From the NCBI GenBank assembly GCA_041659785.1, contig JBAZXO010000001.1, positions 177,649-241,648 on the forward strand: a DNA stretch of 64,000 bases. Direction: 5' to 3'. A program made the translations under genes and the position numbers. This stretch comes from Minisyncoccota bacterium. GTDB taxonomy: Bacteria > Patescibacteriota > Minisyncoccia > Phycocordibacterales > UBA9973. Each line of letters starts with the position of its first letter. Position 1 is the first letter of the stretch. Positions 3,193 through 62,585 of the stretch are shown here, one piece after another. The notes below the pieces were generated by a model. It ran no database searches. It saw only the letters and a list, made by a program, of their open reading frames with translations, and had not been told where the DNA came from.

Positions 3193-3645
3193 ATGGAGGA
3201 AAAACTTTCTATGATAAACAAAACAAAAACGAAAACTCCTCGTCTACCTTTTCTTGATCTTAAAAATGACATTTTAGGGAAAAACTATTCCCTCTCTATC
3301 GCTTTCGTAGATGAAAAAAAATCTAGAGAAATAAATAAGGAATACAGAAACAAAGATAAATCTACAAATATTTTATCTTTTCTTTTACATAAAAACGAAG
3401 GTGAAATAATTATCTGCCCACCCGTCGTAAAGCGTGAAGCTAAAAATTTTGAAAGAAATTTCGACCAATTTATGGGATTTTTAGTTATCCACGGAATGCT
3501 TCATTTGAAAGGACACGAACATAGTAGTACAATGGAGAGACTAGAAGAAAAATATGATAAGAAATATTTCAGTGGGCATAGACGTGGGATCATCCACGAC
3601 ACGAGTCGTGGTAGGAGAATTTCTAAAAGGAGAAAAAAATCCTAA
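3193..3645 (+). CDS. ybeY: rRNA maturation endoribonuclease YbeY
   Basis: HGMLHLKGHEH zinc-binding motif (H-x3-H-x5-H), about 150 aa. The non-conserved C-terminal tail overlaps the ftsA start. Confidence 0.8.
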   Translation: MEEKLSMINKTKTKTPRLPFLDLKNDILGKNYSLSIAFVDEKKSREINKEYRNKDKSTNILSFLLHKNEGEIIICPPVVKREAKNFERNFDQFMGFLVIHGMLHLKGHEHSSTMERLEEKYDKKYFSGHRRGIIHDTSRGRRISKRRKKS

Positions 3646-4717
3646 GATTATTGGTATGGGTGAAAGTATCACTCTAGGCATGAGGCACGGCTACGTCGTA
3701 AACTCTCCACTGGTCACTGCTTCAGTGAGAAATGCAGTTGCGCTCGCAGAAAAAACTTCTGGCTTAAAAATAAAAAAATGTTTTGTTTCACTTTCTGGCA
3801 CCACGCTCAAAAGTGAGATAAGCGGAGGGAGCACTATCGTTTCAAAAGCTGACGGTGAAGTGACCTCTCTCGATGTGAACAAAGCACTTCAGGATTGTGA
3901 GGACAATTTAAGCTTGGGAAATAAAAAAATTATCCATATATACCCCATTTCTTACCGACTCGATGGGAAAGAAGTCTTGGGTAGATTAGAGGGTATGCGC
4001 GGAACAAAGCTTGAGATTAAAGCACTTTTTGTCACTTATTCCGTTGTACACTTAGAGGATTTACTAGGGGCAATAGCAGAAGCTGGAGTAGAAACTATAG
4101 ACGTGATCGCCTCTCCACTCGCCATCAGCAACATCGCTCTAACCGAAAGACAAAAGATCGTAGGCGTAGCACTCGTAGACATCGGAGACCAGACGACATC
4201 TCTTTCTGTTTTTGAAAATGGATTACTCATGTCAGTCGCTACTTTCTCTATAGGTTCGACTGAAATAACAAATGACATTGCACTCGGTTTTAAAATTTCC
4301 TTAGAAAAAGCAGAAGCTCTAAAGCTTGGAAATAGCACAGAAGAATTTTCAAAGAAAAAACTCGACGAAATCATCGAAGCACGACTATGTGACATCTTTG
4401 AATCAATAGAAAATAATTTAAAGAAAATAAAAAGGTCCGAGCTCTTACCGGCCGGTATAGTATTCGTGGGTGGTGGTGCAAATACTCCAATGCTCGCAGA
4501 ATTATCTAAATCTACACTCAAGCTCCCCTCTAGTATTGGTGCAACAGAAATCTTTGGCAACACAAAAACGAAACTTCGTGACCCAGCTTATTTTAATGCA
4601 ATTGGTTTACTCACCTCCGGAAAAGATACAGGTGGCTATGAAGGCAACTCTTTCAAAAAACTCTTAAAAGACCTAGAAAACACAATAAAATCAAGCATAA
4701 AACAGCTGATGCCATAA
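3554..4717 (+). CDS. ftsA: cell division protein FtsA (actin-like ATPase)
   Basis: The N-terminal VGIDVGSSTTRVVVGE phosphate-1 motif is present. Length is 387 aa. It sits immediately upstream of ftsZ. Confidence 0.9.
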   Translation: MIRNISVGIDVGSSTTRVVVGEFLKGEKNPKIIGMGESITLGMRHGYVVNSPLVTASVRNAVALAEKTSGLKIKKCFVSLSGTTLKSEISGGSTIVSKADGEVTSLDVNKALQDCEDNLSLGNKKIIHIYPISYRLDGKEVLGRLEGMRGTKLEIKALFVTYSVVHLEDLLGAIAEAGVETIDVIASPLAISNIALTERQKIVGVALVDIGDQTTSLSVFENGLLMSVATFSIGSTEITNDIALGFKISLEKAEALKLGNSTEEFSKKKLDEIIEARLCDIFESIENNLKKIKRSELLPAGIVFVGGGANTPMLAELSKSTLKLPSSIGATEIFGNTKTKLRDPAYFNAIGLLTSGKDTGGYEGNSFKKLLKDLENTIKSSIKQLMP

Positions 4718-7936: not shown

Positions 7937-7999
7937 GCATCAATTATACCACTAAAAGATAAATTGAAAAACAAAGGGCTTGGTGTATAATCGAGAAAC

Positions 8000-22670: not shown

Positions 22671-22701
22671 AGATATATTATAACATATTTTAAAAGACTA
22701 T

Positions 22702-23979
22702 TTACCAAGTAGTAATAGCTGATCTTTTCCAAGTATTCGTGGCTACACAAACATAAACGTAGCCGGAATCCCAAGCTATTGAACCAGTAATACAAGCAGA
22801 TGCAGCAGTGGCTGGAGTCTGGGCTGTTTCTAAAATAAAAGAATTTGAATTTATATCAAGCTTTGCTTGTGGTGCTTTTGTACCTATTCCAATATTCCCA
22901 GTTGAAATTGTTGCTCCTGTGCCATCGAGTGCTGTGCCGTAAATTAAATTACCTATGTCTAACTGATTTGATGCAGTTGCACTTGCTACAGCTACATCGT
23001 TACCTATTGATATATTGTTTGAACCAGTGGTGATTTGATTTTGTGATGCAGATATAGTCGAATTTCCAACAACAACATTACGAGCACCCGATGTAACTCC
23101 ATAACCAGACTGATAACCAATTAGGGTATTATAATCCGATCCAGTAAGTGCCTTATAGCCTGACTGATAGCCAAGATAGACTCCACCTTGATTAGAAAAA
23201 TGTGTTACGTTACCACTTCCAGCATTATAACCAACTGCCGTGTTAGATGTAGCTACATCACTAAAATATAAAGCATTTCCCCCAATAACGGTATTTTTTG
23301 AACCCGTAGTGTTGTAGACTAATCCCTCAAATCCTACAATAGTATTATCACTACCTGTGGTATTTGTAGCTAAAACATTGTGCCCTATTGCAGTATTATC
23401 AATACCAGTTGTATTTAACAAAAAGGAATATGAACCAATCCCAATATTAAAAGAGCCTGTGGTATTGGCACTAAGAGTATAGTCACCAATTGCAATATTG
23501 CTAGTTCCTGTGGTATTTGCGTTAAGTGCAAATGAACCCAAGGCAGTATTTTCTAATCCTGTGGTATTTGAAGATAGTGCACTATCTCCCACTGCTGTAT
23601 TATAACTTCCTTGTGATCCAGTACTTCCTGTCATTGTAAAGTTACCTGCATTTATTCCAACAAAAGTATTTTGTCCATCAGTTCCAGCTAGCGCAAAATT
23701 ATGGATAAAACGATTTGCTCCTTTGAAAATAACTCCGGTAGTTGAACTTGTGGTCGTAGGAATAGTAAGACTACTACCCAAAGTAACCATCCCTGTTCCT
23801 GTGGTTATCGCTCCGTTGTTCGTAGTCTGTAATGACAAAGCATTCCCTGCACCTACATCTATCGTAGAAGCAGCATCTCCTGTAATAGCAGCTGAGCTGA
23901 AGGTTAGAGAGGCAAATGCTTTTGTTGCACCTAAGACAATTACTAATAATACAAACAAACTTAATATTTTTTTATTCAT
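22702..23979 (-). CDS. secreted repeat protein resembling phage tail fibre shafts (NTxxG / NTTGxxN tandem motifs)
   Basis: Signal peptide MNKKILSLFVLLVIVLGATKAFA. More than 15 tandem copies of an approximately 15-aa motif (xNTAxGxxALxSNTTG). The C-terminus is Cys-containing. Confidence 0.6.
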   Translation of the reverse strand: MNKKILSLFVLLVIVLGATKAFASLTFSSAAITGDAASTIDVGAGNALSLQTTNNGAITTGTGMVTLGSSLTIPTTTSSTTGVIFKGANRFIHNFALAGTDGQNTFVGINAGNFTMTGSTGSQGSYNTAVGDSALSSNTTGLENTALGSFALNANTTGTSNIAIGDYTLSANTTGSFNIGIGSYSFLLNTTGIDNTAIGHNVLATNTTGSDNTIVGFEGLVYNTTGSKNTVIGGNALYFSDVATSNTAVGYNAGSGNVTHFSNQGGVYLGYQSGYKALTGSDYNTLIGYQSGYGVTSGARNVVVGNSTISASQNQITTGSNNISIGNDVAVASATASNQLDIGNLIYGTALDGTGATISTGNIGIGTKAPQAKLDINSNSFILETAQTPATAASACITGSIAWDSGYVYVCVATNTWKRSAITTW

Positions 23980-24017
23980 AATATACTTAAAAAGTTAATT
24001 ATTAATTCAACTCTTTA

Positions 24018-24047
24018 AGTTTACCCCCCCCCCCGAAATTTTGTTAA
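24018..24047 (-). promoter_or_regulatory. candidate promoter for the tail-fibre-like gene, with the C11/G11 tract forming most of the -35/-10 spacer
   Basis: On the minus strand: TTAACA (24042-24047), 18-nt spacer AAATTTC+G11, then TAAACT (24018-24023). The ATG is 39 nt further downstream. Confidence 0.4.
24024..24034. repeat. homopolymeric tract C11 (G11 on the coding strand of the downstream gene)
   Basis: Direct read of ttaCCCCCCCCCCCgaaa. This is very unlikely by chance in DNA that is roughly one-third GC. Confidence 0.9.
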
Positions 24048-24093
24048 GTGAAAATGGGGATAACTCAAATAACAAGGTTAAACCTTGTAATTT

Positions 24094-24468
24094 TTATTTA
24101 AACCAACTTGTTAAAAATGACCAAAAGCCCGAAGACGCAGGCTTGGGCGCCATGGGTGGATTTTTATCTTCTACTACTACCGTCAGGTCTTCTCCTTCTT
24201 TTACTAGACCTAGATTTTCTCTAAAGAACTTCTCCTTACCTGCATCAGTGTTTAAATTATTTATCTCGGATGAGATATTTTTCTGTTGTTGTTTTAAGGC
24301 AGCTACTTTATCTTCTGCAATTTTTCTATTTTTACTAGTTTCCTCCATTCTGCCCCAAAGCTCCCAAACATTCCAAGCAAAAAATAACAAAACAATACCA
24401 AAAAATATTAAAAATGGTTTTGACTCTACAATATTCCTCCAGCCCCTTTTTTCTTGAAAATTTCTCAT
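24094..24468 (-). CDS. FtsB/DivIC-like septum formation initiator (bitopic coiled-coil protein)
   Basis: N-terminal transmembrane segment (FLIFFGIVLLFFAWNVW) followed by a coiled coil (IAEDKVAALKQQQKNISSEINNL). Length 124 aa. Confidence 0.5.
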   Translation of the reverse strand: MRNFQEKRGWRNIVESKPFLIFFGIVLLFFAWNVWELWGRMEETSKNRKIAEDKVAALKQQQKNISSEINNLNTDAGKEKFFRENLGLVKEGEDLTVVVEDKNPPMAPKPASSGFWSFLTSWFK

Positions 24469-26566: not shown

Positions 26567-28342
26567 TTAAATTATATTTTTAAATCCGCCTGCTTGTAAG
26601 TCCCAAAGTTTTTTATACAAACCGTCTTTTTTGTTTACCAATTCATAATGAAGTCCGTCCTCAGTAATCTTTCCTTTTTCCAAAACAATAATTCGATCCA
26701 TTTCTCGAATAGTTGAAAGTCGATGTGCGATAACTATTGTCGTCTTACCTTTGATGAGTGTACGTAGAGCATCTTGAATTAAAGATTCAGAATGAGAATC
26801 AAGAGAAGATGTCGCTTCATCGAGAACAAGAATTGGAGCATTTTTAAGAATGGCCCGAGCAATAGCTACACGCTGACGTTCTCCACCCGAAAGCTTTACT
26901 CCTCGCTCGCCGACGTATGTCTCATAACCTTTAGGCAATGCATCGATAAATTCATCACAGTGTGCTAAGTGTGCAGCTATTAATACTTCTTCGTCTGTAG
27001 CGTCTCGCCTTCCGTAACGAATGTTTTCCATAAGAGTACGATGAAAGAGTACTGGATCTTGTGGCACGAAAGCTATATGTTCTCGAAGATTTTTCTGGGA
27101 AATATTTTTTATATCAACTCCATCAATCATTACTTTACCAGAAGTAATGTTGAACAATCTCATAAGGAGACGTACGAAAGTCGTCTTACCTGCCCCTGAT
27201 GAACCAACAATAGCAATCTTTTGTGAAGCTGGAATCGTCAAAGAAAAATGATCTAATACTTTAGAATTATTATTCTCATATATATAACTAACATCATCAA
27301 ATACGACTTCCCCTTTAACTTTATTTAAAGCTTGTGTCGAATTATCAATAATTTCATAAGGTGTATCGAGGATGATAGTCATTTCTTGCGCGTTGGCAAA
27401 ACTTTCATAATATGCACGCACAATAGCACCAAAACTCCATAAACCATCAACTAAACGAACAAAATAAAGCTGTAATAAAACAATCACGGGTAAAGTTACT
27501 AAGCCAAGTTTCCAATCATCAATAACCAACCAGAAAATAATAAATTCAGCACAAAAAGTATAGAAACTTTCTACAGTATTAAGCCCTTCCCAGAGATACC
27601 AGTTGAATGCTGTTTTGTTTTTTTGATCTTTAACAACTTCATCTATCTGGCTTTTTTCGTATTCATGTCCTGTGAACAACTGAATTGCTGAATGATTACC
27701 AATTGAATCAGACAAAGCACCAGTAGTTTTCGAATCAGCTTCTGAGGCGATGATATCGTATTTCAATTTATAGCGAATATAAATAAATGCTGTAATTAAA
27801 AATATAATACAGAAAATCCCTAAAATATAAGAATACTTTGGTACCAGTGTATAAAAAGCAATTATTATTCCTATTCCACGAACAAAAAGCGGTATGCCGT
27901 CAGCCATCATTCTGTCAGTTAATTTTTCGAAGGCGTTAGCGTATTTATTTATTTTTCTTACGAGAGAACCACCAAAATTATTTGCAAAAAAGGAATGCGA
28001 ATTTCCGATCATATAAGAAAATGCCTGCTTGCGCAGACCAGCAATAGTATTAGCTTCAAAATATGCAAGTGAAAATCCTGAAGTTCTGCGGATTATCCAA
28101 CGAATAAAGTTTAACAATAAAATAAAAAGAATTACAGACTTAGCGACAGAAACTACTGAAAAATTATTGGCGCTTAAAACATTCCAAAGTTTTAAGTATT
28201 GAAATGGTATATAGACATCAAGGATAGAAGCAATTGTTGTACAAACAACAACAGAAAAAAATGACACCTTGAAGCGTTTTACTACTTGCCAATAATATTT
28301 AAGCACCAAACCTCGGTGCAGATTTGAGTAATCTTTTTCCAT
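26567..28342 (-). CDS. ABC transporter, fused permease and ATPase (MsbA-like exporter)
   Basis: Six-helix transmembrane domain followed by Walker A (GSSGAGKTT), the LSGGERQRVAIARA signature and Walker B (ILVLDEATS). Confidence 0.85.
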   Translation of the reverse strand: MEKDYSNLHRGLVLKYYWQVVKRFKVSFFSVVVCTTIASILDVYIPFQYLKLWNVLSANNFSVVSVAKSVILFILLLNFIRWIIRRTSGFSLAYFEANTIAGLRKQAFSYMIGNSHSFFANNFGGSLVRKINKYANAFEKLTDRMMADGIPLFVRGIGIIIAFYTLVPKYSYILGIFCIIFLITAFIYIRYKLKYDIIASEADSKTTGALSDSIGNHSAIQLFTGHEYEKSQIDEVVKDQKNKTAFNWYLWEGLNTVESFYTFCAEFIIFWLVIDDWKLGLVTLPVIVLLQLYFVRLVDGLWSFGAIVRAYYESFANAQEMTIILDTPYEIIDNSTQALNKVKGEVVFDDVSYIYENNNSKVLDHFSLTIPASQKIAIVGSSGAGKTTFVRLLMRLFNITSGKVMIDGVDIKNISQKNLREHIAFVPQDPVLFHRTLMENIRYGRRDATDEEVLIAAHLAHCDEFIDALPKGYETYVGERGVKLSGGERQRVAIARAILKNAPILVLDEATSSLDSHSESLIQDALRTLIKGKTTIVIAHRLSTIREMDRIIVLEKGKITEDGLHYELVNKKDGLYKKLWDLQAGGFKNII

Positions 28343-28397: not shown

Positions 28398-30851
28398 TTA
28401 TAATGCTGGAGCTGGGGTGGATGTAGGAGTAGGTGCTGGGTCTGGGGCTGGAGAACCACCTCCCCCACTTACTGTGGGGACTCCTCCTCCGGAAGGAGGA
28501 GAGGAAGTCGTGCTTTCCCCTCCTTGTGGAGGAGGGGTGCCTCCGCCAGACGGAGGCGGGGTGGTAGTAGTTGTTGGTGCAGGTGTAGGCGTAGAAATTA
28601 ATGCTGTGGGTGGAGGTGTATTATTTTGCAAAAATGTTTGCAACTCTGTTTCAGTCACACAGGTATTGTTAATACATATTTTATCTTTTGCATGGAAACT
28701 TCCTGCAAACACATCCCCTATCCCATTTGTAACATCTGCGAGCCATGCACCCACTTTCGTATAAACATTATTAAAGAAGGCTGTCACGAAAGATTCAGTA
28801 GCGGGTGAAATGGTCTGCCCTGAACTTAGCTGAAGGGTGCCAGAAACTGCGTTTATGTTTAGATTAAGTTCTTGTAAAGCTTTAGTTAATATTGGAATAA
28901 CACCAGTAGTATTTAGAGATTTCATTCCTTCTACATCAGTCGCTACTAATTTAGGAACTACAGTTTCGACTTCTTGAGCGATAAAACCTAAATTTTTAAT
29001 AGAACCATCTACTTCATAATTCCAATTATAAACAACTGGTCTTAACTTCATTATTGTATCTAATCCATAATTAATATCTTCAATATTTTTCTTCATTCTT
29101 ACATCTGAAGTACAAGATATAGTTCCTCCAGTAGCTAAGGTACATCCTGTGGTATTTACATCGGTAAATTTTGCAATTATAGCTCCAGTTCCAGTGCCTT
29201 TTACCTCCAAAGGAATAGTCGTACCAGTTATTCCAATACCCACATTCCCCGTACTCCCTACTTGTAATCCTGTATATGCAATATTGTAAGCTTGAGAGGC
29301 GACAGTTTGAGAAGTTGAAACAGTGAGGCTTGTGGTTGAGCCAAATGCAGTAATTGTTCCTGCATTCGTACCATCCGCAAATACGAATTGCGAACCTACC
29401 ATTGCGGAAGTGAATGTCGTACCTACACCAGTGATTGTAGTCAAAGATTGAGATGCTGTGCCTGTGCTGTATTGAGTAGGGGTGACGGAGAGGATACCAG
29501 CAGGTACAAGTGTTCCAATGCCAAGATTTCCATTAATTGTTAATTTTTGTCCTGTAAGAGATCCTGCTGTGCCTGAAAAGGTTCCATAAAGGAGAGAGTA
29601 GTTTTTGTCATTCGCAAGCGTAGTCTGAAGCACATTATTTACATAAAAAGCGTTAGAATCAATTTCATTATAACCAGCTGAATATCCTAAGGCGACATTA
29701 TTGTTTCCTGTGGAGTTTGTATAAAGAGCATTAGCACCATTCGCGGTATTATAATAACCTATAGTGTTTAAATAGAGAGATTTATAACCATTTGCGGTAT
29801 TTTCCGATCCTGTGACAAAAATAGAATCATCCATGTTAATAGCCGTACCAGTATTAGAGTAAAGAGCATCTTTGCCATTCGCAGTGTTGCCATCTCCTAT
29901 AATATTTGAATAAAGAGCATTAGCACCATTCGCGGTATTACTATCGCCACTGAATCCTATAAAACAACCAGGTTCTAAAGGATTACAAGTACGAGTTATT
30001 GAAGCGTTAGAATAAAGAGAACTTAAACCAATAGCAGTGTTATTGCCACCAGAAGTATTCGAATATAAAGCTGAGTCACCAATTGCCACGTTGGAGGAAC
30101 CTGTAGTATTACTAAAAAGTGCTTCTGTTCCGCTTGCTAAATTGGCAGAACCAGTTGTATTAGAAAATAAAGCAGACTCACCTTGTGCAATATTATACAA
30201 TCCAGTCATTGTTAAATTTCCACCATCACCAAAAAAATAATTACTTAGGGAAGGATCAGCTGTAACAATATTAACACCCGCATATTTATAAGCAGAGCCT
30301 GAAGAAATATTTATATTCCCCACAACGTCAAGTTTTTGTGAAGGAGTAGTCGTCCCGATTCCAATATTTCCATTCCCTAATACTGAAAATCTTGTTCCCC
30401 CAACTAAAGTGTAAGCTACACCAGAGTTTGCAAGGGTAATAGCATCTGTGGTCATGGAAGTATCTGAAGCAATGGCAGAAATAGTTACAGTCTGACCTGT
30501 GGTTGCTGGTATTGTAATTGTGTCTCCAACTTTAAATGTATTGGTAAATTTTGTACCTACACCCGTGACTGTGGTACCGCCAGCATCATTTGAAACTGTT
30601 CCTATTCCTGTTGTTTCTTGAGCGACTTGAAATTTCGCAGTCGGTGCATTTGTACCGATACCATAAAAAAGTGTCGTTGGGTTTACATAAATTTGATCAA
30701 CCGCGCAGTTTGTATCTGTGGGACCACAAGTAGGATTCAATGTCTCTCCTGGTGCAAAGCGGGTACTAGGTGGAGAAGCAAAAACAAAAGTCGTGACCGT
30801 AAAAAAAGATGCAAATATAAATAACCCGATAAGAAAGAAATTTTTATGCAT
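28398..30851 (-). CDS. very large secreted tail-fibre-like protein with a peptidase-S74 intramolecular-chaperone domain and a Pro/Thr/Gly-rich C-terminus. Likely start is M27 (MHKNFF...) at 30851.
   Basis: Signal peptide. NTxxG/NTTGxxN repeats as in 22702-23979. SDVRMKKNIEDINYGLDTIMKLRPVVYNW...GFIAQEVETVVPKLV matches the S74 chaperone-of-endosialidase domain consensus (SDxRxKxNI ... GFIAQEV). Tail is TPPPSGGGTPPPQGG... Confidence 0.7.
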   Translation of the reverse strand: MHKNFFLIGLFIFASFFTVTTFVFASPPSTRFAPGETLNPTCGPTDTNCAVDQIYVNPTTLFYGIGTNAPTAKFQVAQETTGIGTVSNDAGGTTVTGVGTKFTNTFKVGDTITIPATTGQTVTISAIASDTSMTTDAITLANSGVAYTLVGGTRFSVLGNGNIGIGTTTPSQKLDVVGNINISSGSAYKYAGVNIVTADPSLSNYFFGDGGNLTMTGLYNIAQGESALFSNTTGSANLASGTEALFSNTTGSSNVAIGDSALYSNTSGGNNTAIGLSSLYSNASITRTCNPLEPGCFIGFSGDSNTANGANALYSNIIGDGNTANGKDALYSNTGTAINMDDSIFVTGSENTANGYKSLYLNTIGYYNTANGANALYTNSTGNNNVALGYSAGYNEIDSNAFYVNNVLQTTLANDKNYSLLYGTFSGTAGSLTGQKLTINGNLGIGTLVPAGILSVTPTQYSTGTASQSLTTITGVGTTFTSAMVGSQFVFADGTNAGTITAFGSTTSLTVSTSQTVASQAYNIAYTGLQVGSTGNVGIGITGTTIPLEVKGTGTGAIIAKFTDVNTTGCTLATGGTISCTSDVRMKKNIEDINYGLDTIMKLRPVVYNWNYEVDGSIKNLGFIAQEVETVVPKLVATDVEGMKSLNTTGVIPILTKALQELNLNINAVSGTLQLSSGQTISPATESFVTAFFNNVYTKVGAWLADVTNGIGDVFAGSFHAKDKICINNTCVTETELQTFLQNNTPPPTALISTPTPAPTTTTTPPPSGGGTPPPQGGESTTSSPPSGGGVPTVSGGGGSPAPDPAPTPTSTPAPAL

Positions 30852-30888
30852 TTTTTGAATTGTTAATTTTTTGAGATACATATATTTA

Positions 30889-32649
30889 TTATAACAAAAA
30901 ATTCTGATTAATGATCCCCCTCTTTGCATTAATTATACCAGAAGTATAAACAGTAGTATATGATTCATCTGGATTCTTGCGGTCTATGGTAATGTGATAT
31001 TCGCCTTTAGCAAGCAGACAATAATAATGACCATATTTATCAGCAACACGGTGGAATATCTCTTGCGGAAAACCTTTTCTAAACACGCGGACAATAGCAA
31101 AGGACATTGGTGTTTTGGTTTTAGCATCCATAATCGTCCCTAGAGTTTTAGGTTTTAAAAATAGCCGAATGATAAGAAGTAAAACGTAAATAGCAATAAT
31201 TATAAGATTCAACTTATTAGGATTAATAGCCAACAGAACAGTAGCAGAAATAAATCCAAGATAAAAAAGATTGGTTGAAATAATATTAATTATCCTTGCG
31301 TTTTTTGAATAAAATACCATGAGTTTCTTGTCACGTTTTGCAAACTCATTCCAGTCGAAGGCAAGGGGGTCCATTGGGATGTTTTTAGTGATGACTGTAT
31401 TTTCATTTAGAATAACTTCTCCACCGAAGTATAGATTGTCATAAAGTTCATCTCTAGTCTTTCCAGCAAGTTTTATGGAAGGTGCTTGATAGTTTGTTTT
31501 TCTTGTTGTAATTTCGTACGGACCTGGAGGTGCCAGAAAACCAAAACGTCCATCTAAGTCTGTTATGGCTGTGCCCACTTCTTTTCCTTCTTTATTTTTT
31601 AGAACTACATAGACTGGATCGAGTGGTTGCTTGGTAACACTATCATAAACCGTCCCCCAGGGTGCACGTTTTTTCCTTAAACCAAGTGATACCAGAAGAA
31701 CACTCCAAAGACGAAAAATTAAAAGGGGTACATCGGCAAAAGAAAATACATTCCCAGCAAGGGAAATTGCGACGACAGAACTTCCACCAAGAACACCGAC
31801 ACCGGAGACAGTTTTTGAAGCGATGGAACCAGCAGAAGTATTAACAAATCTAACAACATTTTTTCTTATTGTCCTAGTTGTTTTATCTACAAGAGTTACT
31901 CCTTTTTTAAAAGACTCAAAAATTGTTGTAGTAACTGAAGGTAATGATTGAGTGCCGCCACTGACTCCACCCCCAACATTTCCCGTAAATCCTGGGGTTG
32001 GTGTTGGACTCGGAATCGGAGTAGGTGTGGGATTAGGAGTCGGGGTTGGGGTTGGGGTAGGAGTTGGTGTTGGTGTAGGAGTTGGTGTCGGGGTCGGGGT
32101 TGGGGTTGGGGTTGGTGTAGGATGACCTCCCCCACCACTTTCGCTAGGACGTAAACTAAATGGTTTCCAATCAGTTTGCAAATAGAAATTATCAGTTCCG
32201 CATGAATTATCATCTAAACAATTAAAACTAATCCATCCTAAATTTTGACTCCATGCATAACCATGAAAAATTCCTAAATTATCAATAGTAACTCCTCCTC
32301 GTGTGGGCGCAAAATTAATCCAACCAGTATTTTGCCCCCAAGCATAACCAGCGAGATGACCTTCCGCATCATTAGTCACACCTCCATTCGTTGGTGCTAA
32401 ATTGATCCACCCAGCTAATTCACTCCATGCATTACCTGTAAGTCTAGAATCTGTAACATGTACATTTCCTAAAACAAGAGCAAAATTAATTTTCCCGACA
32501 TTACTATCTAAACCTTTTGCGTATTTATGAACACCATCTATCGTCCCATCAGTAGCGGAAGCATATGCAAAAAGTGGTACTGAAAACACAAAAAGACCTA
32601 AAAGTAACAAATTTTTTAGATATAAACTAAAAATTTTTTTATTTAACAT
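30889..32649 (-). CDS. secreted multi-domain protein: three GWINF/GYAW repeats, a (PT)n linker, transmembrane segments and two carboxypeptidase-regulatory-like (DxDGxF) domains
   Basis: Signal peptide. Repeats GWINLAPTNGGVT..GYAWGQNTGWINF x3. A PTPTPT... linker of about 35 aa. LKNKEGKEVGTAITDLDGRFGF motif. Confidence 0.55.
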   Translation of the reverse strand: MLNKKIFSLYLKNLLLLGLFVFSVPLFAYASATDGTIDGVHKYAKGLDSNVGKINFALVLGNVHVTDSRLTGNAWSELAGWINLAPTNGGVTNDAEGHLAGYAWGQNTGWINFAPTRGGVTIDNLGIFHGYAWSQNLGWISFNCLDDNSCGTDNFYLQTDWKPFSLRPSESGGGGHPTPTPTPTPTPTPTPTPTPTPTPTPTPTPNPTPTPIPSPTPTPGFTGNVGGGVSGGTQSLPSVTTTIFESFKKGVTLVDKTTRTIRKNVVRFVNTSAGSIASKTVSGVGVLGGSSVVAISLAGNVFSFADVPLLIFRLWSVLLVSLGLRKKRAPWGTVYDSVTKQPLDPVYVVLKNKEGKEVGTAITDLDGRFGFLAPPGPYEITTRKTNYQAPSIKLAGKTRDELYDNLYFGGEVILNENTVITKNIPMDPLAFDWNEFAKRDKKLMVFYSKNARIINIISTNLFYLGFISATVLLAINPNKLNLIIIAIYVLLLIIRLFLKPKTLGTIMDAKTKTPMSFAIVRVFRKGFPQEIFHRVADKYGHYYCLLAKGEYHITIDRKNPDESYTTVYTSGIINAKRGIINQNFLL

Positions 32650-32744
32650 TTTATTTACGCTAACCCTTGTATTATATCAATATATATTTTGAAATAAAAG
32701 ATATTTGTGGATAACTTTCTAAAGAAGTAAGCTCTTAACAAAGA

Positions 32745-34211
32745 TTACTCATCTAAAATTTCAAAATCATTACCATCTTCTGGTATAACCTTTTTCCGAC
32801 GAATAAAATAAACCGCGCCTGCCGAAGCTCCTATAAAAATAACTGAGGTAATTATGGGTAAATATGAATTACTGGGACTATTTTCTGGTGTATTACTTTG
32901 GATTGCTGAAGAAGTCAAATCCTCTGGAATAGAACTAAGATTAGTATCAATAACCCCTCCTAACCTCCCCTTATCAAGGGAGGAAAAAGATCCAGAACGT
33001 CCCCCTGATAAGGGGGATTTAGGGGGTTGCACTACTGCCAGGTCTTGCCTAACGGTATAATCAAATACAACTCCTCCTTCTCTATTTATTAATTTTAAAG
33101 TATCTTTATCGGTAATTGAAAAATTTGTAATTCTAGGAGAAATAATCATCTTCTTTTTTGATACCAAAATTGTATTCTTTGGAATCATAAAACTTTTTCC
33201 ATCACTTACTAAAAACCAATTTGAAATGTCAGCATTGTAAAGAGTATTATTCGAAAGCTCTACAAAAAAATCTTTTTCATCACCCACGCTAGATATCGAG
33301 ATGTCTGCTCCAACTATTTTTATATTAATTTCATCTATAGCATCCGGAATGTCCGAATAATTATTAGAATAATAAGAAAGAGACACAACATATTCTCCAG
33401 GGTAAAAATATGCATGAGTAAATTTACTACTATTTATCATTTGTATTTCTTTGGAATCTCCATCACCAAAATTCCAAAAATACTTTCCGTAATGCAACTG
33501 CTCTCCGCCATATCCTAATGTCGTAGCATCAAAAGGTAGTGGTAAATTAACAAAACCAAAAGTCTTGCTTATAATTTTAGTTTTAATTTTAGGTATTTCG
33601 GATACTTTCTTCTGTTCTGGTATTGTATTTGAACTTAAAGGAACAGAAGAAATTGGATTTCCGCCACCAGTTGTAGAAGTTGATGTAGTAGATGTTCCAC
33701 CATTTATTTCTCCAGGTGTGGGAGTAGACCCTACCCAAGAGCCTGATATTTTTTGTAAAGAATTTCCATCACCCGCTCCGCCTAAGGATGTTGTATAAGA
33801 AACTTCATCAATAACACTTCCATCTTGATCTAAAATTTTTAATGTTGTACCAGTATTATTTAAACTTGTAAAACCTGTGTCATACACAGAGCCAGCAAAA
33901 GAAGAGTGCTCTGCCAAGAAAGTATCTTTGTCTCCAGTAAAAATTACATAACCATTAGCCGGAATAGAGAAATTCACTTCACCGTTTATTGTTCTGTTCC
34001 CTCCTCCATCATAAAACCTCCATTTCGAAGCATCGACAGAAACTTCGTTAGATCCAGAATTGTAAATTTCTACCCATTCTCTACTTTTTCCGTTTATCGA
34101 ATCAGAACCCGATAAATCATAGTTTATTTCATTGATACTTAAACCAGCAAAAGCTAAACGACACGCTGAAAAGAAAAAAACCAACACAAAAACTGAAATT
34201 GATTTCTTCAT
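32745..34211 (-). CDS. secreted protein with lamin-tail-domain (LTD)-like modules and a C-terminal membrane anchor
   Basis: Signal peptide. INEINYD...EWVEIYNSG...VDASKWRFYDGGG matches the LTD pattern (INE...EWVEL.N.G...L.GW.L.D). A C-terminal hydrophobic helix is followed by RRKK. Confidence 0.55.
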   Translation of the reverse strand: MKKSISVFVLVFFFSACRLAFAGLSINEINYDLSGSDSINGKSREWVEIYNSGSNEVSVDASKWRFYDGGGNRTINGEVNFSIPANGYVIFTGDKDTFLAEHSSFAGSVYDTGFTSLNNTGTTLKILDQDGSVIDEVSYTTSLGGAGDGNSLQKISGSWVGSTPTPGEINGGTSTTSTSTTGGGNPISSVPLSSNTIPEQKKVSEIPKIKTKIISKTFGFVNLPLPFDATTLGYGGEQLHYGKYFWNFGDGDSKEIQMINSSKFTHAYFYPGEYVVSLSYYSNNYSDIPDAIDEINIKIVGADISISSVGDEKDFFVELSNNTLYNADISNWFLVSDGKSFMIPKNTILVSKKKMIISPRITNFSITDKDTLKLINREGGVVFDYTVRQDLAVVQPPKSPLSGGRSGSFSSLDKGRLGGVIDTNLSSIPEDLTSSAIQSNTPENSPSNSYLPIITSVIFIGASAGAVYFIRRKKVIPEDGNDFEILDE

Positions 34212-57144: not shown

Positions 57145-57843
57145 TTAGTTTAAAAGAAATCTGAGTGTAGAAACTACCCGGATCTTCTTGTATTCAGGAG
57201 AACCTGGATCTTTATCTGTTATATCAAACACGCCTTGATTTCCGCGTGACACCCCACCCAAGTGAGATCCGGACTCTTTTGCGAATTGTGTTGCTGCATC
57301 TTTTGCGTTTTTAATAGCTTCAGCAAGCATCTCTGGTTTAACACTATTGATATCCGAAAATTCAAAAGCGATAGAATTTTGATTTAGGGTAACCCCTTCT
57401 TTTACCAACATCAAAGTATCCTTGGAGGCAGACCTAACTGCATCGACTTTCTTTGTATAGACAGACAATTGAGTGTTTGCATTGTATCTAAACAAAGAAT
57501 CTTTGTATGTATCCTGATAAATATTTACTGGAGCTACATTTATCTCTGACGTCTCAAATCCTTTTGCTAAAAGAAATTTATTTATTGCCGTAGTATTTTT
57601 TTCAATATCAGCATAAAGTGAATCAATATTGTTTGACTTAACATCAAAATTGATTGACCATATCGCCACATCAGCTTTGACTATTTTTTCTGATAGACCT
57701 TTCACCTCTACATAAGACTGTTGCTTAGAAAAATTCTGTGCCGCAGCAAAAGAAAGAAATGAAAAAACTAATAATACTGCTCCAATAATCCACATACTGC
57801 TATTTTTTATATTTTCCATAAATTTATTATAACACAAATACAC
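57145..57843 (-). CDS. SIMPL/BP26-family (DUF541) secreted protein
   Basis: Signal anchor. YVEVKGLSEKIVKADVAIWSINF pattern typical of SIMPL-domain proteins. Confidence 0.45.
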   Translation of the reverse strand: MYLCYNKFMENIKNSSMWIIGAVLLVFSFLSFAAAQNFSKQQSYVEVKGLSEKIVKADVAIWSINFDVKSNNIDSLYADIEKNTTAINKFLLAKGFETSEINVAPVNIYQDTYKDSLFRYNANTQLSVYTKKVDAVRSASKDTLMLVKEGVTLNQNSIAFEFSDINSVKPEMLAEAIKNAKDAATQFAKESGSHLGGVSRGNQGVFDITDKDPGSPEYKKIRVVSTLRFLLN

Positions 57844-57864: not shown

Positions 57865-59034
57865 TTAAACAAGGCGTTTAAAAAGATAAATAAATACAGT
57901 CATTGCAGTAAATGCTACCAAGGCAGCGAAAACAAAAGCATAAATGGGATTTAAGACCCACAAAATTCCTGCTATCACTGAAGCGAGAAGATATATTAAG
58001 CCTGTAGTAAAGTTATATGCGCCGATGGCTGTAGCTCTCCTGTCCTTCTCTATGTCAGAAATAAATGCTTTACTCTGAGCTTCGTCAATACTATAAAAGA
58101 TTCCAAATAATATGAACAAAATAATTACCTCCCATTTTTCTTTTGCAAAAATAAAACCTAAAGACATAATGATATAAGTTATATATCCTAAAATAATTAT
58201 GTATCTTCGTCCGATAAAGTCACCGAGCTTGCCTATAGGTATAGATATAAAGACAAAAGAGATATTGAAAAGCGCGTAAAGCAAGACCACATCTTTGATA
58301 GCAAAGCCGACAGCATATGCTCTAAGAAGTAAAAATCCAAAACTAAAATAAGCTAAAGAAAAAATTCCCGCAGGAATAAGAAAAAGTCTAAAACTAGGAC
58401 TCAATGTCCCCCAGGCCTTAAAAATATTTTCTCTTTCATGAGGAATACCTGGACGATCCTTCATTAAAGCGAGAACGAGCACAGCGAGTAATGCTCCGAT
58501 GATTGCTATAACAAAGATAATATGAAAAGTACTCCTGGTAGTACCCAAATAAAGAAGTAAGAAATATGCAACAAGAGGCCCTAAGATAGCACCTGCTTTA
58601 TCCATCGCCTTATGTACTCCAAATGTGTATCCCCTAGTAGATTCTTGTGCTACAGCAGAAAGCCATGCATCTCTAGGTGGACCACGAAAACTTTTTCCTA
58701 CACGTTCAATAATTCTAAATGATGCTAGAGATGCCACAGAGCTCGATACGAGAAGAATCACTTTCGCAACAGTTGAAAAACCATAACCAAAAATAGCTAA
58801 TTGTTTCCTCTTACCCGTTTTATCTGAAAGCCAACCAGCAAAATAATCTAGAGAAGACGCGGAAAAATCTGAAAAACCTTCTACTAAACCTAGAAGTGAT
58901 GCAGGCGCACCAACGATTACTGTAAAGAATATAGAAAAAACTGAAAAAATAGCCTCCGAGCTAATGTCAGTCAAAAAACTCACAATACCCAATTTGAAAA
59001 CATCAGGGTGAATATTTAAAAATCTTTTTTCCAT
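57865..59034 (-). CDS. MFS transporter
   Basis: Twelve predicted transmembrane helices and a GxLaDrxGrR-like loop (LSDKTGKRKQLA). Confidence 0.75.
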   Translation of the reverse strand: MEKRFLNIHPDVFKLGIVSFLTDISSEAIFSVFSIFFTVIVGAPASLLGLVEGFSDFSASSLDYFAGWLSDKTGKRKQLAIFGYGFSTVAKVILLVSSSVASLASFRIIERVGKSFRGPPRDAWLSAVAQESTRGYTFGVHKAMDKAGAILGPLVAYFLLLYLGTTRSTFHIIFVIAIIGALLAVLVLALMKDRPGIPHERENIFKAWGTLSPSFRLFLIPAGIFSLAYFSFGFLLLRAYAVGFAIKDVVLLYALFNISFVFISIPIGKLGDFIGRRYIIILGYITYIIMSLGFIFAKEKWEVIILFILFGIFYSIDEAQSKAFISDIEKDRRATAIGAYNFTTGLIYLLASVIAGILWVLNPIYAFVFAALVAFTAMTVFIYLFKRLV

Positions 59035-59056
59035 TACAAGCTAAATATACTAGTTA

Positions 59057-59188
59057 TTAAGCAAACTTTGTTTTGTTTCTAGCAGCTTTTTTAGTAAGCA
59101 TGATACTCTTGACTGCGAGTCTTTTTGCAGTCTTGTGTGAGCGTCTTGATTTCTTTTTGGGACTAAGTGTTGTTCCTCTTTTTGCCAT
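59057..59188 (-). CDS. small basic protein, 43 aa, possibly ribosomal (bL35-like?)
   Basis: MAKRGTTLSPKKKSRRSHKTAKRLAVKSIMLTKKAARNKTKFA. The ...ILTKKA.R.K segment resembles bL35, but the protein is much shorter. Confidence 0.25.
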   Translation of the reverse strand: MAKRGTTLSPKKKSRRSHKTAKRLAVKSIMLTKKAARNKTKFA

Positions 59189-59272
59189 ATAATTCTTGTT
59201 ATTTATTATTAATAAGTTATTTTCTATTATACTTTATAATGATAAATAATTCAATAAAATTAATTCTTATTT

Positions 59273-59557
59273 TTATTCCTTAGTTTTTAGCCATCTTTGT
59301 AATTCAATTACGGCATTTAATTTTTCTTTATTTTCTTCTACCCTTTTTAAATCTTCTAGCCATCCTTCAACCATAGGTTTCATATCTTTTCCATCTGATT
59401 TACCATTTTCCATTATTACTTCTAAATGTTTTTTAGCTAGATCTAGCTTACCCATATCTAACAAATGCTTTGTAACGCTAGTCGCAGAAAGCCATGCCGC
59501 ATTTCCAATTTTATGTTTAAGGTTTTCGTGAAGATTTTTGTGAACAAGTTTATCCAT
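59273..59557 (-). CDS. hypothetical all-helical protein, 94 aa, co-directional with and downstream of the nuclease gene
   Basis: ORF only. No motif recognised. Confidence 0.35.
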   Translation of the reverse strand: MDKLVHKNLHENLKHKIGNAAWLSATSVTKHLLDMGKLDLAKKHLEVIMENGKSDGKDMKPMVEGWLEDLKRVEENKEKLNAVIELQRWLKTKE

Positions 59558-59615
59558 ATAGATTATAAAAAATTAAAAATATTAATAAAACCATTATAGC
59601 ATGTTTATTATTATA

Positions 59616-60368
59616 CTACTTTTCTTCTGCCTCACTAACTGCTTTCCTATAGGCGCACCAATCACAATTTTCTCCTGTTTCTGGAATTTTATCACTATCT
59701 AAACATTCTTTTATTTTAAATAAAGTCTTTTCCACCCATGAGTCATCACCCTCATACGCAATTAGATTTACATCAAAATCAATCCTTTTATCGAAGGCTT
59801 CTCGGTCCATTATACCTGTACAATAAACAAAATAGCCTGTATTAGAAACCTTTAAACCATTATGCCTGACTAGCCACTGATATACCTCCATTTGGCGTTT
59901 ATAGCCATCCTGCCACTCTTTATCGAGCTCTTTTACTGCTTCATCCTTTGCAGTAGCTTTGTAGTCTACGACCATATATTGACCCTTACCATCAATCCAT
60001 AAATCATCGATGGCTCCAGTGACGAGTAAACCTGTGGGTTCATGCAAATATTTAACCCCACCGAAATTTCTTCTCCATTCATCAAGTTCTTCATGAGGAG
60101 CTGGTTTCGCATCTATGCCATATTCTTTCTGCAATGGGTGCTGTTGATTCTTCGCGCGATGAATATCAAATTCTTGTTTAAGCAAATGATCGACTGCGCT
60201 GTTGATAGAAAACGGAAATCCTGGCACTCTTTTTATGCCCAATTTATTATCTATATAAAAACACCTTGGGCATTCCAAAAATAAATCAATCTTGGAACGG
60301 CTAAGTTTCCAATTTCCTCCTCCGTAATTCCAAGCTCTCCCCCTGTTTGGTTTGTAATATTCAGACAT
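59616..60368 (-). CDS. PD-(D/E)xK nuclease, Cas4/RecB-like, with a four-Cys cluster
   Basis: D...VVDYKA (D-x(n)-D/E-x-K) core. Cys pair CPRC near the N-terminus and CDWC at the C-terminus, the Cas4/AddB-type arrangement. Confidence 0.6.
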   Translation of the reverse strand: MSEYYKPNRGRAWNYGGGNWKLSRSKIDLFLECPRCFYIDNKLGIKRVPGFPFSINSAVDHLLKQEFDIHRAKNQQHPLQKEYGIDAKPAPHEELDEWRRNFGGVKYLHEPTGLLVTGAIDDLWIDGKGQYMVVDYKATAKDEAVKELDKEWQDGYKRQMEVYQWLVRHNGLKVSNTGYFVYCTGIMDREAFDKRIDFDVNLIAYEGDDSWVEKTLFKIKECLDSDKIPETGENCDWCAYRKAVSEAEEK

Positions 60369-60403
60369 AAACTATTTTACCATTTTTTTATAATTCTCTA
60401 TAG

Positions 60404-60436
60404 CAAAAAAAAGGTCATCTTACGATGACCTTTTTT
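60404..60436. terminator. orphan bidirectional terminator-like hairpin in a divergent intergenic region
   Basis: A9-GGTCATC-ttac-GATGACC-T6. There is no upstream gene on either strand to terminate. Confidence 0.5.
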
Positions 60437-60446
60437 CCTCGTGGAC

Positions 60447-60457
60447 ATTATATCACA
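60447..60457 (-). promoter_or_regulatory. extended -10 element TGaTATAAT on the minus strand, upstream of the hairpin and the nuclease gene
   Basis: Minus-strand read TGTGATATAAT. No good -35 is needed for extended -10 promoters. Confidence 0.4.
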
Positions 60458-60633
60458 AAGTTGGAACCAATGGGAAAGCTGGGTTTTCGGAGCATACGAC
60501 ACCCTTATCGGAAATTATCGGTCTGAAAATAGCCTTGTTTGTTAAGTATAAATAGATATCTAGTATCACAAGAATAGAATTAAATAGCTTATATTGTGGA
60601 CAACTTTATTAAATAATATGATACAATTATTCC

Positions 60634-61119
60634 ATGAATAAATTAGCAGTAAGTGTGCCTGCTAGCTCAATAGCAGAATACTTTATTCAAAAATCTAATC
60701 TTTCATCTCCGCGAAGGGTTATAACTAATAAGAAAATTCAAAAACTTGTCTATTATGCTCAAGCATGGTCTTTGGCTATAAACAAACGTCCTCTTTTTGA
60801 AGAAAAGATTGAAGCGTGGGTGCATGGACCTGCAATAAAAAGTGTCTATGATAGATATAAAAAATTTGGTTTTAGTGTAATAAAAAAAGAACCTGATTTA
60901 GCTTTAATCAAGGTTATATCTGAGAATGATAAAAATATTTTAGAACAAGTATGGGATGTTTATGGTAAATACGATTCTTCTTACTTAGAAATGCTTACTC
61001 ATTCCGAACTCCCTTGGCAAAAAGCGAGAGAAGGACTTACTGTTGATGAAAGTTCTGAAAATGAAATAAGTATTGCTTCTATGCAAGAGTTTTACTCATC
61101 TAAACTTAAAAAAAATTAA
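60634..61119 (+). CDS. Panacea-domain (DUF4065, SocA/GepA-like) protein, putative antitoxin
   Basis: KLVYYAQAWSLAINKRPLFEEKIEAWVHGPAIKSVYDRYKKFG matches the DUF4065 consensus as I recall it (KLqKLlYyaqgw.La..g.pLf.e.feAW.hGPV.p.vY..yk.yG). Confidence 0.65.
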   Translation: MNKLAVSVPASSIAEYFIQKSNLSSPRRVITNKKIQKLVYYAQAWSLAINKRPLFEEKIEAWVHGPAIKSVYDRYKKFGFSVIKKEPDLALIKVISENDKNILEQVWDVYGKYDSSYLEMLTHSELPWQKAREGLTVDESSENEISIASMQEFYSSKLKKN

Positions 61120-61128
61120 TTTAAGTTT

Positions 61129-61548
61129 ATGTCTATTCCAGAAGAAGCAAGTAAGTTGGCAGTAAGTGACTCTTTAATTCCAGAAAATATCACCCAGCTT
61201 CCACAACGAGAAGATGACCCTGAGTCTTCGCCATTTATGATTTCATTGGCTAGGTATAACGAAAAAGAGTGTGGTATAGACAACATAGATAAAAAAAGAG
61301 CTGTAAAAGCCTTAAAACTAATACGAGAAATAGGAGTTAATACGTATTCCGAATCAGATTTAAGGAGTTTGAAATTAAAACCTGTTTATCCAAATGGAGA
61401 TTATAAAAAATTATACAAAGGATTACCCTTAGACATTGAGATAAAGGAATTATTTATTGACTCAGACAAAGGAAGGATTTTCTTTTTTACTCTTCAGAAA
61501 ATTTTTTATCTTATATCAATAACAGATTCTCATTACAATACCCATTGA
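61129..61548 (+). CDS. uncharacterised 139-aa protein 9 nt downstream of the Panacea gene, a candidate cognate toxin
   Basis: Tight operonic spacing. Helix-then-beta pattern with a C-terminal ...SHYNTH, reminiscent of RelE/YoeB-fold toxins (speculative). Confidence 0.4.
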   Translation: MSIPEEASKLAVSDSLIPENITQLPQREDDPESSPFMISLARYNEKECGIDNIDKKRAVKALKLIREIGVNTYSESDLRSLKLKPVYPNGDYKKLYKGLPLDIEIKELFIDSDKGRIFFFTLQKIFYLISITDSHYNTH

Positions 61549-61720
61549 ACCATAATTTGAAAGTTTTCTGACCATATAAAAATATCGATTAAAATGGTGG
61601 AAAACGGAGGAAATCGGTGGTTTTCGGACATCGTGGAAGTGTTGCCTGATAAACAGGGTAATAACAGGAAAGAACAAGACGGCCTATATAGATAAACTGT
61701 ACAATAACTGCATGAAACAG

Positions 61721-61734
61721 CCAGTTATAACTGG
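61721..61734. promoter_or_regulatory. perfect 14-bp palindrome CCAGTTATAACTGG (operator-like) upstream of the zinc-ribbon membrane protein gene
   Basis: Direct read, followed by a TTGACA hexamer at 61746-61751. Confidence 0.35.
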
Positions 61735-61781
61735 TAGTTTACTGGTTGACACTTAGGATAATAAGAGTAGCATTTAAGTAT

Positions 61782-62585
61782 ATGAAAAAATGTCAAAAAT
61801 GTTTTGAAGAACTTTCTGATGATGCTAAATTTTGTGGAAAATGTGGAGAAAAGATGAGTGAAGTTGTTACAAGTAATTTTTCAGAAAATAATCATGAAAA
61901 TATTACCAAAACACCACTTATAAAAACATTAGTGGCATATGTTGTAGGAATTTTCGCATGTATTCTTGTTATTGGTCTTGTTAATTCAATAATGACTGGA
62001 ATCATCCCTGTAATGATAGGAGTAATTTTAGGAGTATCTGTAGCAGATAAAATAATTGTTAAAATAACTGGAAAACCAGTAAAAAAATTTTATTTTGGAA
62101 AACATAAAGACGGTGAAGAAAAAAAGGGGGTAAGTAAAACTTTAATTTACGTTATTATTGGTTTTGTTGTTCTTGTAATTATTTCTTCTATAATACTTTA
62201 TTACCCAAGTTTTACTAAAGAAATAAATAAGGAAACAGGGAACGCAGGTAATACAGAACTTACATATGAGGTTATGCAAGAAGTAGCAAATGGTATGAAT
62301 AAGGAATATCCACAAATGATAGATTCTGACACTAGGTTAGATTCTGTTACTGGAGCAGAAAATACTCTTTCTTATCACTATACACTTGTAAATTATAGTC
62401 TTGCTGACATAGATGTCTCTAAGCTTAACGATATACTAAGAGGAGATATTGTAAATTTAGTTTGTACAACTCCAGAAATGAAAATTTACGTTAAAAATAA
62501 AGCTGTTTTGAATTATACTTATTATGATAAAAGTGGTTTGTTTTTAATAAATATTCCAGTAAATACTGGAACTGATTGTAAATAA
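61782..62585 (+). CDS. zinc-ribbon (CxxC...CxxC) membrane protein with a C-terminal extracytoplasmic domain
   Basis: MKKCQKCFEEL...KFCGKCGEKM, then two to three transmembrane helices. The ATG at 61782 is preferred over the TTG at 61746. Confidence 0.5.
   Translation: MKKCQKCFEELSDDAKFCGKCGEKMSEVVTSNFSENNHENITKTPLIKTLVAYVVGIFACILVIGLVNSIMTGIIPVMIGVILGVSVADKIIVKITGKPVKKFYFGKHKDGEEKKGVSKTLIYVIIGFVVLVIISSIILYYPSFTKEINKETGNAGNTELTYEVMQEVANGMNKEYPQMIDSDTRLDSVTGAENTLSYHYTLVNYSLADIDVSKLNDILRGDIVNLVCTTPEMKIYVKNKAVLNYTYYDKSGLFLINIPVNTGTDCK

Follow-up and report, generated by a model that had tools for sequence, protein, structure and literature searches.

The surface-protein gene and its genomic setting

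The locus analyzed here lies on the minus strand of a 64-kb stretch of DNA (the window; G+C content 36%), in which a gene for a secreted, tail-fiber-like surface protein, P0001, is embedded in a co-directional run of housekeeping genes: lepA, a divIC/ftsB-like gene, the surface gene itself, and the genes for a 2-hydroxyacid dehydrogenase, glycerate kinase and enolase. The intergenic region between divIC and the surface gene is 114 nt long and contains an uninterrupted homopolymer of 11 G, together with the putative promoter elements collected in Table 1.

Table 1. Features of the surface-protein locus (coordinates refer to the window)
Feature	Coordinates	Strand	Remarks
Dehydrogenase promoter, extended -10 TGTTATAAT	22677-22685	-	6 nt before the ATG of the 2-hydroxyacid dehydrogenase gene; leaderless type
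P0001, 425-aa secreted protein	22702-23979	-	NCBI MFA5931973.1, WC793_01185
Segment between -10 and ATG	23980-24017	-	38 nt, AT-rich; predicted 5' UTR of about 31 nt
-10 element TAAACT	24018-24023	-	4/6 match to TATAAT; keeps -12T, -11A and -7T
G11 homopolymer (C11 on the plus strand)	24024-24034	-	candidate slippage tract
-35-like TTAACA	24042-24047	-	5/6 match, 18 nt upstream of the -10; tentative
GTTATCCCCA, DnaA-box-like conserved box	24055-24064	-	8/9 match to TTATCCACA
7-bp hairpin with T-rich tails on both strands	24072-24088	both	weak intrinsic terminator of the upstream divIC/ftsB-like gene
DivIC/FtsB-like septum formation initiator	24094-24468	-	upstream gene

P0001 is identical to a database protein from a Candidatus Paceibacterota MAG (Table 1). 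It begins with a Sec-type signal peptide (MNKKILSLFVLLVIVLGATKAFA followed by S, with a cleavage site, read by eye, between AFA and S) and continues with a family-specific N-terminal domain, NTxxG-type repeats and a C-terminal domain of about 65 aa that is present in many phyla. The repeats are homologous to thousands of proteins annotated as “tail fiber domain-containing” (E down to 1e-76) and match PHROG virion-structural and tail-spike families. P0001 resembles the PF13884 group of such proteins in this repeat region and differs from it in its Sec signal peptide, its C-terminal domain and the absence of the PF13884 (Peptidase_S74) chaperone domain in a Pfam search; P0001 as a whole has no sequence match in Pfam, NCBIfam or PDB. 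A beta-helix or tail-spike fold is not established on structural grounds, as the AlphaFold (AF2) model is poor (pLDDT 62) and a Foldseek search of PDB with this model returned no match with E below 0.7. The original prediction of a surface-exposed, tail-fiber-like product thus agrees with the signal peptide and the virion-like repeats, and the label is supported by sequence, not by structure.

A paralog encoded outside the window in the same genome, P0044 (WC793_00250, NCBI MFA5931797.1), is nearly identical to P0001 over the first 65 or so residues and different in the remainder, a pattern suggestive of a shared 5' cassette that undergoes recombination or gene conversion. More distant relatives are harder to trace by protein sequence. 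A scan of genome contigs with the full protein gave only distant relatives, mostly through the repeats or the C-terminal domain and lacking the tract, and a search with the N-terminal 131 residues gave four weak matches, one of which (L168) is unrelated. Exact look-ups of the surface protein, its paralog and DivIC found no second copy of the genome on record.

The gene appears to be mobile on a short evolutionary scale. The Logan contig L164, with a DivIC of 92% identity, has neither the surface gene nor the G tract: 22 nt separate divIC from the dehydrogenase, after which comes a MOFRL kinase. About 1.4 kb (window positions ~22690-24093, comprising the surface gene, its promoter and the divIC terminator) is absent at L164 626-649. 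As the dehydrogenase keeps its own promoter and the L164 junction lacks the surface gene, these comparisons indicate that surface gene and promoter form a unit of their own, about 1.4 kb long, present in some close relatives and absent from others. A third, different sequence follows divIC in L163 (97% DivIC identity), and the divIC/2-hydroxyacid dehydrogenase junction is a hotspot of gene gain and loss. Other members of the family occupy unrelated contexts: after obg (L001), map (L083) and rplU (L166), and divergent from rpsB (L169).

A homopolymer of 11 G in the promoter region

The original prediction had proposed a C11/G11 run 45 nt before the start codon, and both the run and its position are as proposed: the tract is uninterrupted, its length is that of the assembly consensus (+/-1), and it ends with a G at -45, counted from the A of the ATG. 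With a transcription start predicted at about 24011, some 7 nt downstream of TAAACT, the tract spans approximately positions -13 to -23. Read on the gene strand, the order is TTAACA (24047-24042), AAATTTC plus G11 (18 nt, 24041-24024), TAAACT (24023-24018), 38 nt, and the ATG (23979). The hexamers and the 18-nt stretch between them accordingly stand as first described, and the distance from the -10 to the ATG is corrected from 39 to 38 nt.

With 11 nt the tract falls in the range of slippage-prone homopolymers (about 8 or more G/C). It is the sole G/C run longer than 6 in the window, and the only other run of at least 6 is a C6 at 53298. Runs of 11 or more G/C are expected 8e-4 times per 64 kb under independent bases and 3.8e-3 times under a first-order Markov model, which bears out the earlier assertion that such a tract hardly ever arises by chance in this DNA. 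Shorter runs are, if anything, depleted, with 2 runs of at least 6 observed against 4-8 expected. No second contingency-like tract was found within the 64-kb window.

Core promoter elements and homologous promoters

Comparison with homologous promoters from other Paceibacteria contigs identifies the downstream neighbor of the tract. TAAACT aligns with a perfect TATAAT in L001, L083, L134, L136, L165 and L166 and with TATTAT in L167, and the aligned hexamers precede the ATG by 34-42 nt throughout. The family comparison makes a good case for TAAACT as the -10 element and for a G tract that directly adjoins it. The alignment with the family TATAAT would place the tract within the core promoter of the surface-protein gene, in keeping with its earlier assignment to the intergenic promoter region of a secreted tail-fiber-like gene. 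The window -10 is degenerate and lacks the T of a TGn extension.

The upstream side is less clear. A -35-like hexamer (at least 4/6) occurs at 17-20 nt in 5 of 9 family promoters, namely TTAACA at 18 nt in the window, TTGCTA at 18 nt in L167, TTGTGA at 18 nt in L165, TTGTCA at 17 nt in L166 and TTTACA at 20 nt in L134. A simple sigma-70 scan around the tract, which returns TTAACA-18-TAAACT, yields 8 matches against 8.2 expected in shuffled sequence, i.e., it is at chance level. As the promoters of this genome lack a -35 signal (see below), the call of TTAACA rests on the family comparison. Of the earlier claim that the tract makes up most of a -35/-10 spacer, the -10 side is therefore upheld by the family alignment; the -35 side is tentative, given the chance-level scan and the promoter style of the genome, though 5 of the 9 family promoters do have such a hexamer.

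The sequence immediately 5' of the -10 varies widely among the homologous promoters: G9 in L167 and L169, G5 in L166, G5 plus T in L136, G4 plus T in L083, G4 in L134, GAG in L001 and TGT in L165. Same-position tract lengths across the diverged family members are thus G1, G4, G4, G5, G5, G9 and G11, and of the roughly ten members sampled, two have a long tract. A search through 771 kb of related loci turned up no G/C run of at least 9 other than the G9 tracts of L167 and L169, which stand at the homologous position. Over the first 240 coding nt the window gene is 93% identical to L083, 80% to L001 and only 76% to L167, and since its nearest relatives carry G4 plus T and GAG, the G11 and G9 tracts are most simply explained as independent expansions of an ancestral short G run.

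The distance from the TTnnnA hexamer to the -10 is 18 nt in both the window and L167, with a non-G part of 7 nt in the former and 9 nt in the latter. That this distance is kept despite the difference between G11 and G9 suggests constraint. The original prediction held that the loss of one G would create an optimal 17-nt spacing. This idea is not borne out, because the G9 homolog likewise has an 18-nt spacing (9 non-G plus 9 G), and 18 nt is probably the preferred or retained state and not one nucleotide too many.

Length differences are seen between diverged family members. The copies in L167 and L169, from the sister JGI samples 3300027923 and 3300027924, have genes of 99.7% identity and both carry G9, so that the tract-length heterogeneity expected of a switch was not seen between them (n = 2, consensus sequences). 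A single invariant tract length in reads, together with relatives that retain the gene and lack the tract, had been named beforehand as what would refute a switch. Half of this picture was found: the nearest coding relatives carry G4 plus T or GAG, and the closest syntenic relative lacks the gene itself.

Downstream of the -10, the leader is 71-76% identical to those of L167, L083 and L001, and no clear Shine-Dalgarno sequence was found in it (23980-24017). A leaderless promoter at TATTAT/TATATT overlapping the ATG was ruled out, since its start would fall inside the ORF. Because the divIC terminator is weak, read-through from upstream could express the surface gene whatever the tract. An Rfam search of the intergenic region gave no match. 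The corresponding RNA (window 23960-24100, minus strand) is predicted to fold better than shuffled sequences (z = -3.46); in the predicted fold TTATCCCC pairs with GGGGGTAA, which comprises the end of the tract and the start of the -10, and a 14-bp hairpin (ACTTAAAGAGTTGA/TTAACTTTTTAAGT) covers the -10 and the leader. An intramolecular G-quadruplex was considered as a function shared by the long tracts and, by reasoning only, appears unlikely, as G9 is too short for even a two-tetrad fold.

The promoter style of the genome

The promoters that can be recognized in the window are of the extended -10 type (TGnTAnAAT), often leaderless and without a -35 signal. A TGn extension precedes TAnAAT at 21 of 88 intergenic sites (24%), compared with 12 of 292 coding sites (4%). 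Many TAnAAT hexamers lie 4-8 nt before an ATG, which points to widespread leaderless transcripts. In the 21 clear extended -10 promoters, TTGACA-like hexamers at 16-18 nt are not enriched (mean best match 2.67 versus 2.41 at control offsets; none reaches 5/6). Examples of this promoter type lie at 7937-7999, 22677-22685, upstream of 26567-28342, at 57820-57830 and at 60620-60633. GGG-TAnAAT was considered as a general promoter form of this genome and rejected: a scan for upstream G found no other such promoter, and the region 5' of TG is AT-rich in the 21 clear ones. A pure extended -10 promoter might be indifferent to the spacing of elements further upstream.

A conserved box upstream of the tract

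The homology between the promoters of the window, L001, L083 and L166 starts at a box, GTTATCC(C/A)C(A/C), whose window version TTATCCCCA matches the DnaA-box 9-mer TTATCCACA at 8 of 9 positions. A perfect TTATCCACA is present at 32706-32714, and matches to TTATCCNCA in the window are not above chance (4 versus 2.5 expected). The spacing between the end of GTTATCC and the -10 is not strictly fixed: it is 32 nt in L001, L083, L166 and a second window promoter, that of the gene for a 586-aa surface protein (box at 32709-32715, minus strand), 33 nt in L137, and 34 nt in L134 and the G11 promoter (24058-24064, minus strand). Counted from the box, G9, and not G10, in place of G11 would restore the common 32-nt distance in the window. 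The box may be a regulator site.

Boxes of the form GTTATCC(A/C)C(A/C) precede several secreted or surface protein genes in different Paceibacteria contigs (L001 4920, L083 2220, L166 ~1417, L137 2343, L134 2409). A similar sequence, AGTTATCCACG (~3480, plus strand), lies 37 nt upstream of the -10 of ftsA (3554-4717) in the window. In L137, L138 and L144 a C7 run (2353-2359) directly follows the GTTATCCACA box, in an arrangement box-N33-TGGTATAAT that is identical in the three contigs.

Comparison with known promoter switches

Several known systems use a homopolymer within a promoter to vary surface proteins. The vlp lipoprotein promoters of Mycoplasma hyorhinis, a host-dependent organism with a small genome, use a poly-A tract in the -35/-10 spacer as a switch, and the vlp genes form a multigene surface family that is conserved at the 5' ends (promoter and signal peptide) and variable in the 3' parts. 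The locus described here shares with vlp the surface-protein family, the conserved 5' ends with variable 3' parts and the promoter homopolymer; it differs in that the tract is poly-G and not poly-A, that the family is dispersed and not clustered, and that a long tract occurs in two of about ten sampled members.

The closest precedent is the porA promoter of Neisseria meningitidis, where expression is high with 11G, intermediate with 10G and low with 9G (PMC3639595). The likeness to porA, and also to the poly-C tract of opc, lies in a G homopolymer of 9-11 nt between a -35-like element and the -10 of a surface-protein gene. In contrast to porA, the -35 of the window promoter is tentative, the promoters of the genome generally lack one and the spacing is 18 nt; moreover, the organism is a Paceibacteria MAG and not a host-adapted pathogen.

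An architectural parallel may be drawn with the fim promoters of Bordetella, in which an activator box, a C-stretch and the -10 follow one another (PMC1891110). As in fim2, fim3 and fimX of B. pertussis, the promoter at 24 kb of the window has an upstream box (GTTATCC(A/C)CA, 32-34 nt from the -10 in six promoters), a G/C homopolymer filling the gap and a -10, a resemblance of architecture only. Unlike its Bordetella counterpart, to which an activator binds, the GTTATCC box resembles a DnaA box and is a putative site, and relatives of the window promoter carry the box without a long tract.

Explanations of the tract

The reading that we tentatively favor, and to which we would give somewhat less than an even chance, is that G11 serves a variable, laterally mobile surface-protein gene as a promoter contingency locus. 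The tract fills the DNA between TAAACT and the elements upstream of it, TTAACA at 18 nt and the GTTATCCCCA box at 34 nt. Replication slippage that adds or removes a G would alter both the distance and the helical phase between these elements and would thereby turn transcription up or down in a stochastic, heritable and reversible manner, i.e., as phase or “volume” variation of the porA, opc or fim type. The present length, with an 18-nt spacing as in the G9 homolog, would more likely represent the expressed state than one that is “off by one”. We infer that slippage is frequent, that the upstream elements take part and that tract length affects expression.

Several lines of evidence argue for such a locus. 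The first concerns the tract itself, its rarity (about 1e-3 expected per window), the otherwise depleted G/C runs and its abutment on the -10. The second is comparative and includes the same-site length differences, the restriction of G9 to the homologous site, the apparently independent expansions, the retained 18-nt geometry and the GTTATCC box at 32-34 nt. The third concerns the gene: its tail-spike-like product has a signal peptide, and it shows two traits typical of contingency or surface-variation genes, a paralog that shares about 65 near-identical N-terminal residues and absence from the L164 junction. To these the meningococcal precedent adds graded expression by 11G, 10G and 9G. Arguing against it are the two near-identical copies that both carry G9, the lone occurrence of the tract in 64 kb, the promoter scan at shuffled level, the 21 clear promoters without -35 enrichment, the degenerate -10, the weak divIC terminator and the box distance that varies from 32 to 34 nt. 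A promoter contingency locus is thus plausible, yet unproven, and would be a known kind of switch in a new phylum.

The alternative that fares best is a neutral by-product, in our view only somewhat less likely than the switch: an ancestral element of G4-G5 beside the -10 would have drifted, through slippage or substitution, to a length of 9-11 G that plays no part in regulation. The gene would be expressed constitutively, by read-through or weakly, and tract length would be selectively irrelevant. The G4-G5 seeds at the same position in four relatives agree with this scenario, and the spacers of the window and L167 can be aligned without indels, so that the tract could have grown by T/C-to-G substitutions. 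The identical consensus length in the two sister samples, the promoters of the genome without a -35, for which spacing may not matter, and the lack of other contingency-like tracts in the window point the same way. However, an uninterrupted G11 should decay quickly in a genome of 36% G+C with depleted G/C runs, two apparently independent long tracts coincide precisely in their promoter position and have no counterpart elsewhere in 771 kb, and the 18-nt distance is preserved across different tract lengths, which suggests constraint.

It is improbable that the tract is instead transcribed, with an upstream promoter placing the G run at or near the 5' end of the mRNA, where its effect could come about by reiterative transcription at initiation or by way of 5'-UTR structure. 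Such an arrangement is brought to mind by L167 and L169, in which a perfect extended -10, TGCTAAAAT, of the dominant type in this genome lies 5 nt upstream of G9, so that the start would fall inside the tract, and by the better-than-shuffled folding of the window region with its pairing of TTATCCCC and GGGGGTAA. The window counterpart TAACAAAAT, however, is degenerate and lacks both TG and the -12 T; in six other members a perfect TATAAT follows the G run, and most show no good element ahead of it; and some members (L083, L134) do not conserve the pairing partner CCCC.

A sequencing or assembly artifact, e.g., two-color Illumina poly-G or a collapsed or miscalled homopolymer, is very improbable: homopolymer lengths are error-prone and a single assembly of this genome is present in the collections, but the tract is interior to a 318-kb contig with both flanks homologous to G-run promoters of other assemblies, independent assemblies of these promoters show G4, G5 and G9 at the same place, and two-color poly-G errors affect read ends and not contig interiors.

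Significance for the Candidate Phyla Radiation

CPR/Patescibacteria are regarded as organisms attached to host cells; to our knowledge, almost nothing is known about how they regulate their surface structures. No report linking these bacteria with phase variation by simple sequences was found in the literature searched, in which the nearest case is a hypervariable repeat gene in a Gracilibacterium (PMC6851277). A contingency locus at G11, if true, would be the first evidence of such loci in reduced CPR genomes and would mark this protein family as a likely determinant of host or phage interaction. As the mechanism of homopolymer switches is textbook knowledge, the value of the case would lie in the organism and the gene family and not in the principle; if confirmed, it would attach a well-known type of switch, in a new lineage, to a mobile family of surface fibers.

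It is intriguing to extend this to a broader scenario, which we regard as rather unlikely in its entirety: a first contingency locus in the Candidate Phyla Radiation, in which a dispersed, mobile family of secreted fibers shares a 5' cassette whose G run has repeatedly expanded (G9, G11) into a slippage switch, randomizing the display of an attachment or receptor-binding fiber. The cassette would comprise the GTTATCC box, the G run, the -10, the signal peptide and the N-terminal domain, and a clonal population of ultrasmall, probably host-attached cells would thereby randomize which of them display the fiber.

Other features of the window

The cumulative GC skew has a minimum near 60 kb (~58000-62000), where gene orientation switches. 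The minimum hinted at a replication origin, for which the gene content gives no support: the genes nearby encode an MFS transporter, a nuclease of the PD-(D/E)XK type and a protein with a SocA/Panacea antitoxin domain, and they are not dnaA or dnaN.

A cluster of three large secreted proteins of 843, 586 and 488 aa is encoded at 28398-34211 on the minus strand. The 843-aa protein (28398-30929) has tail-fiber repeats, PF13884 and a Pro/Thr/Gly-rich tail and is a partial paralog of P0001; the 586-aa protein has a CarboxypepD_reg domain, and the 488-aa protein combines Lamin-tail and PKD domains. The gene of the 586-aa protein contains a (GGGGTT)n tandem array (31994-32121) with a 48-nt higher-order repeat, which encodes a (TP)n linker, and this in-frame repeat could vary in length.
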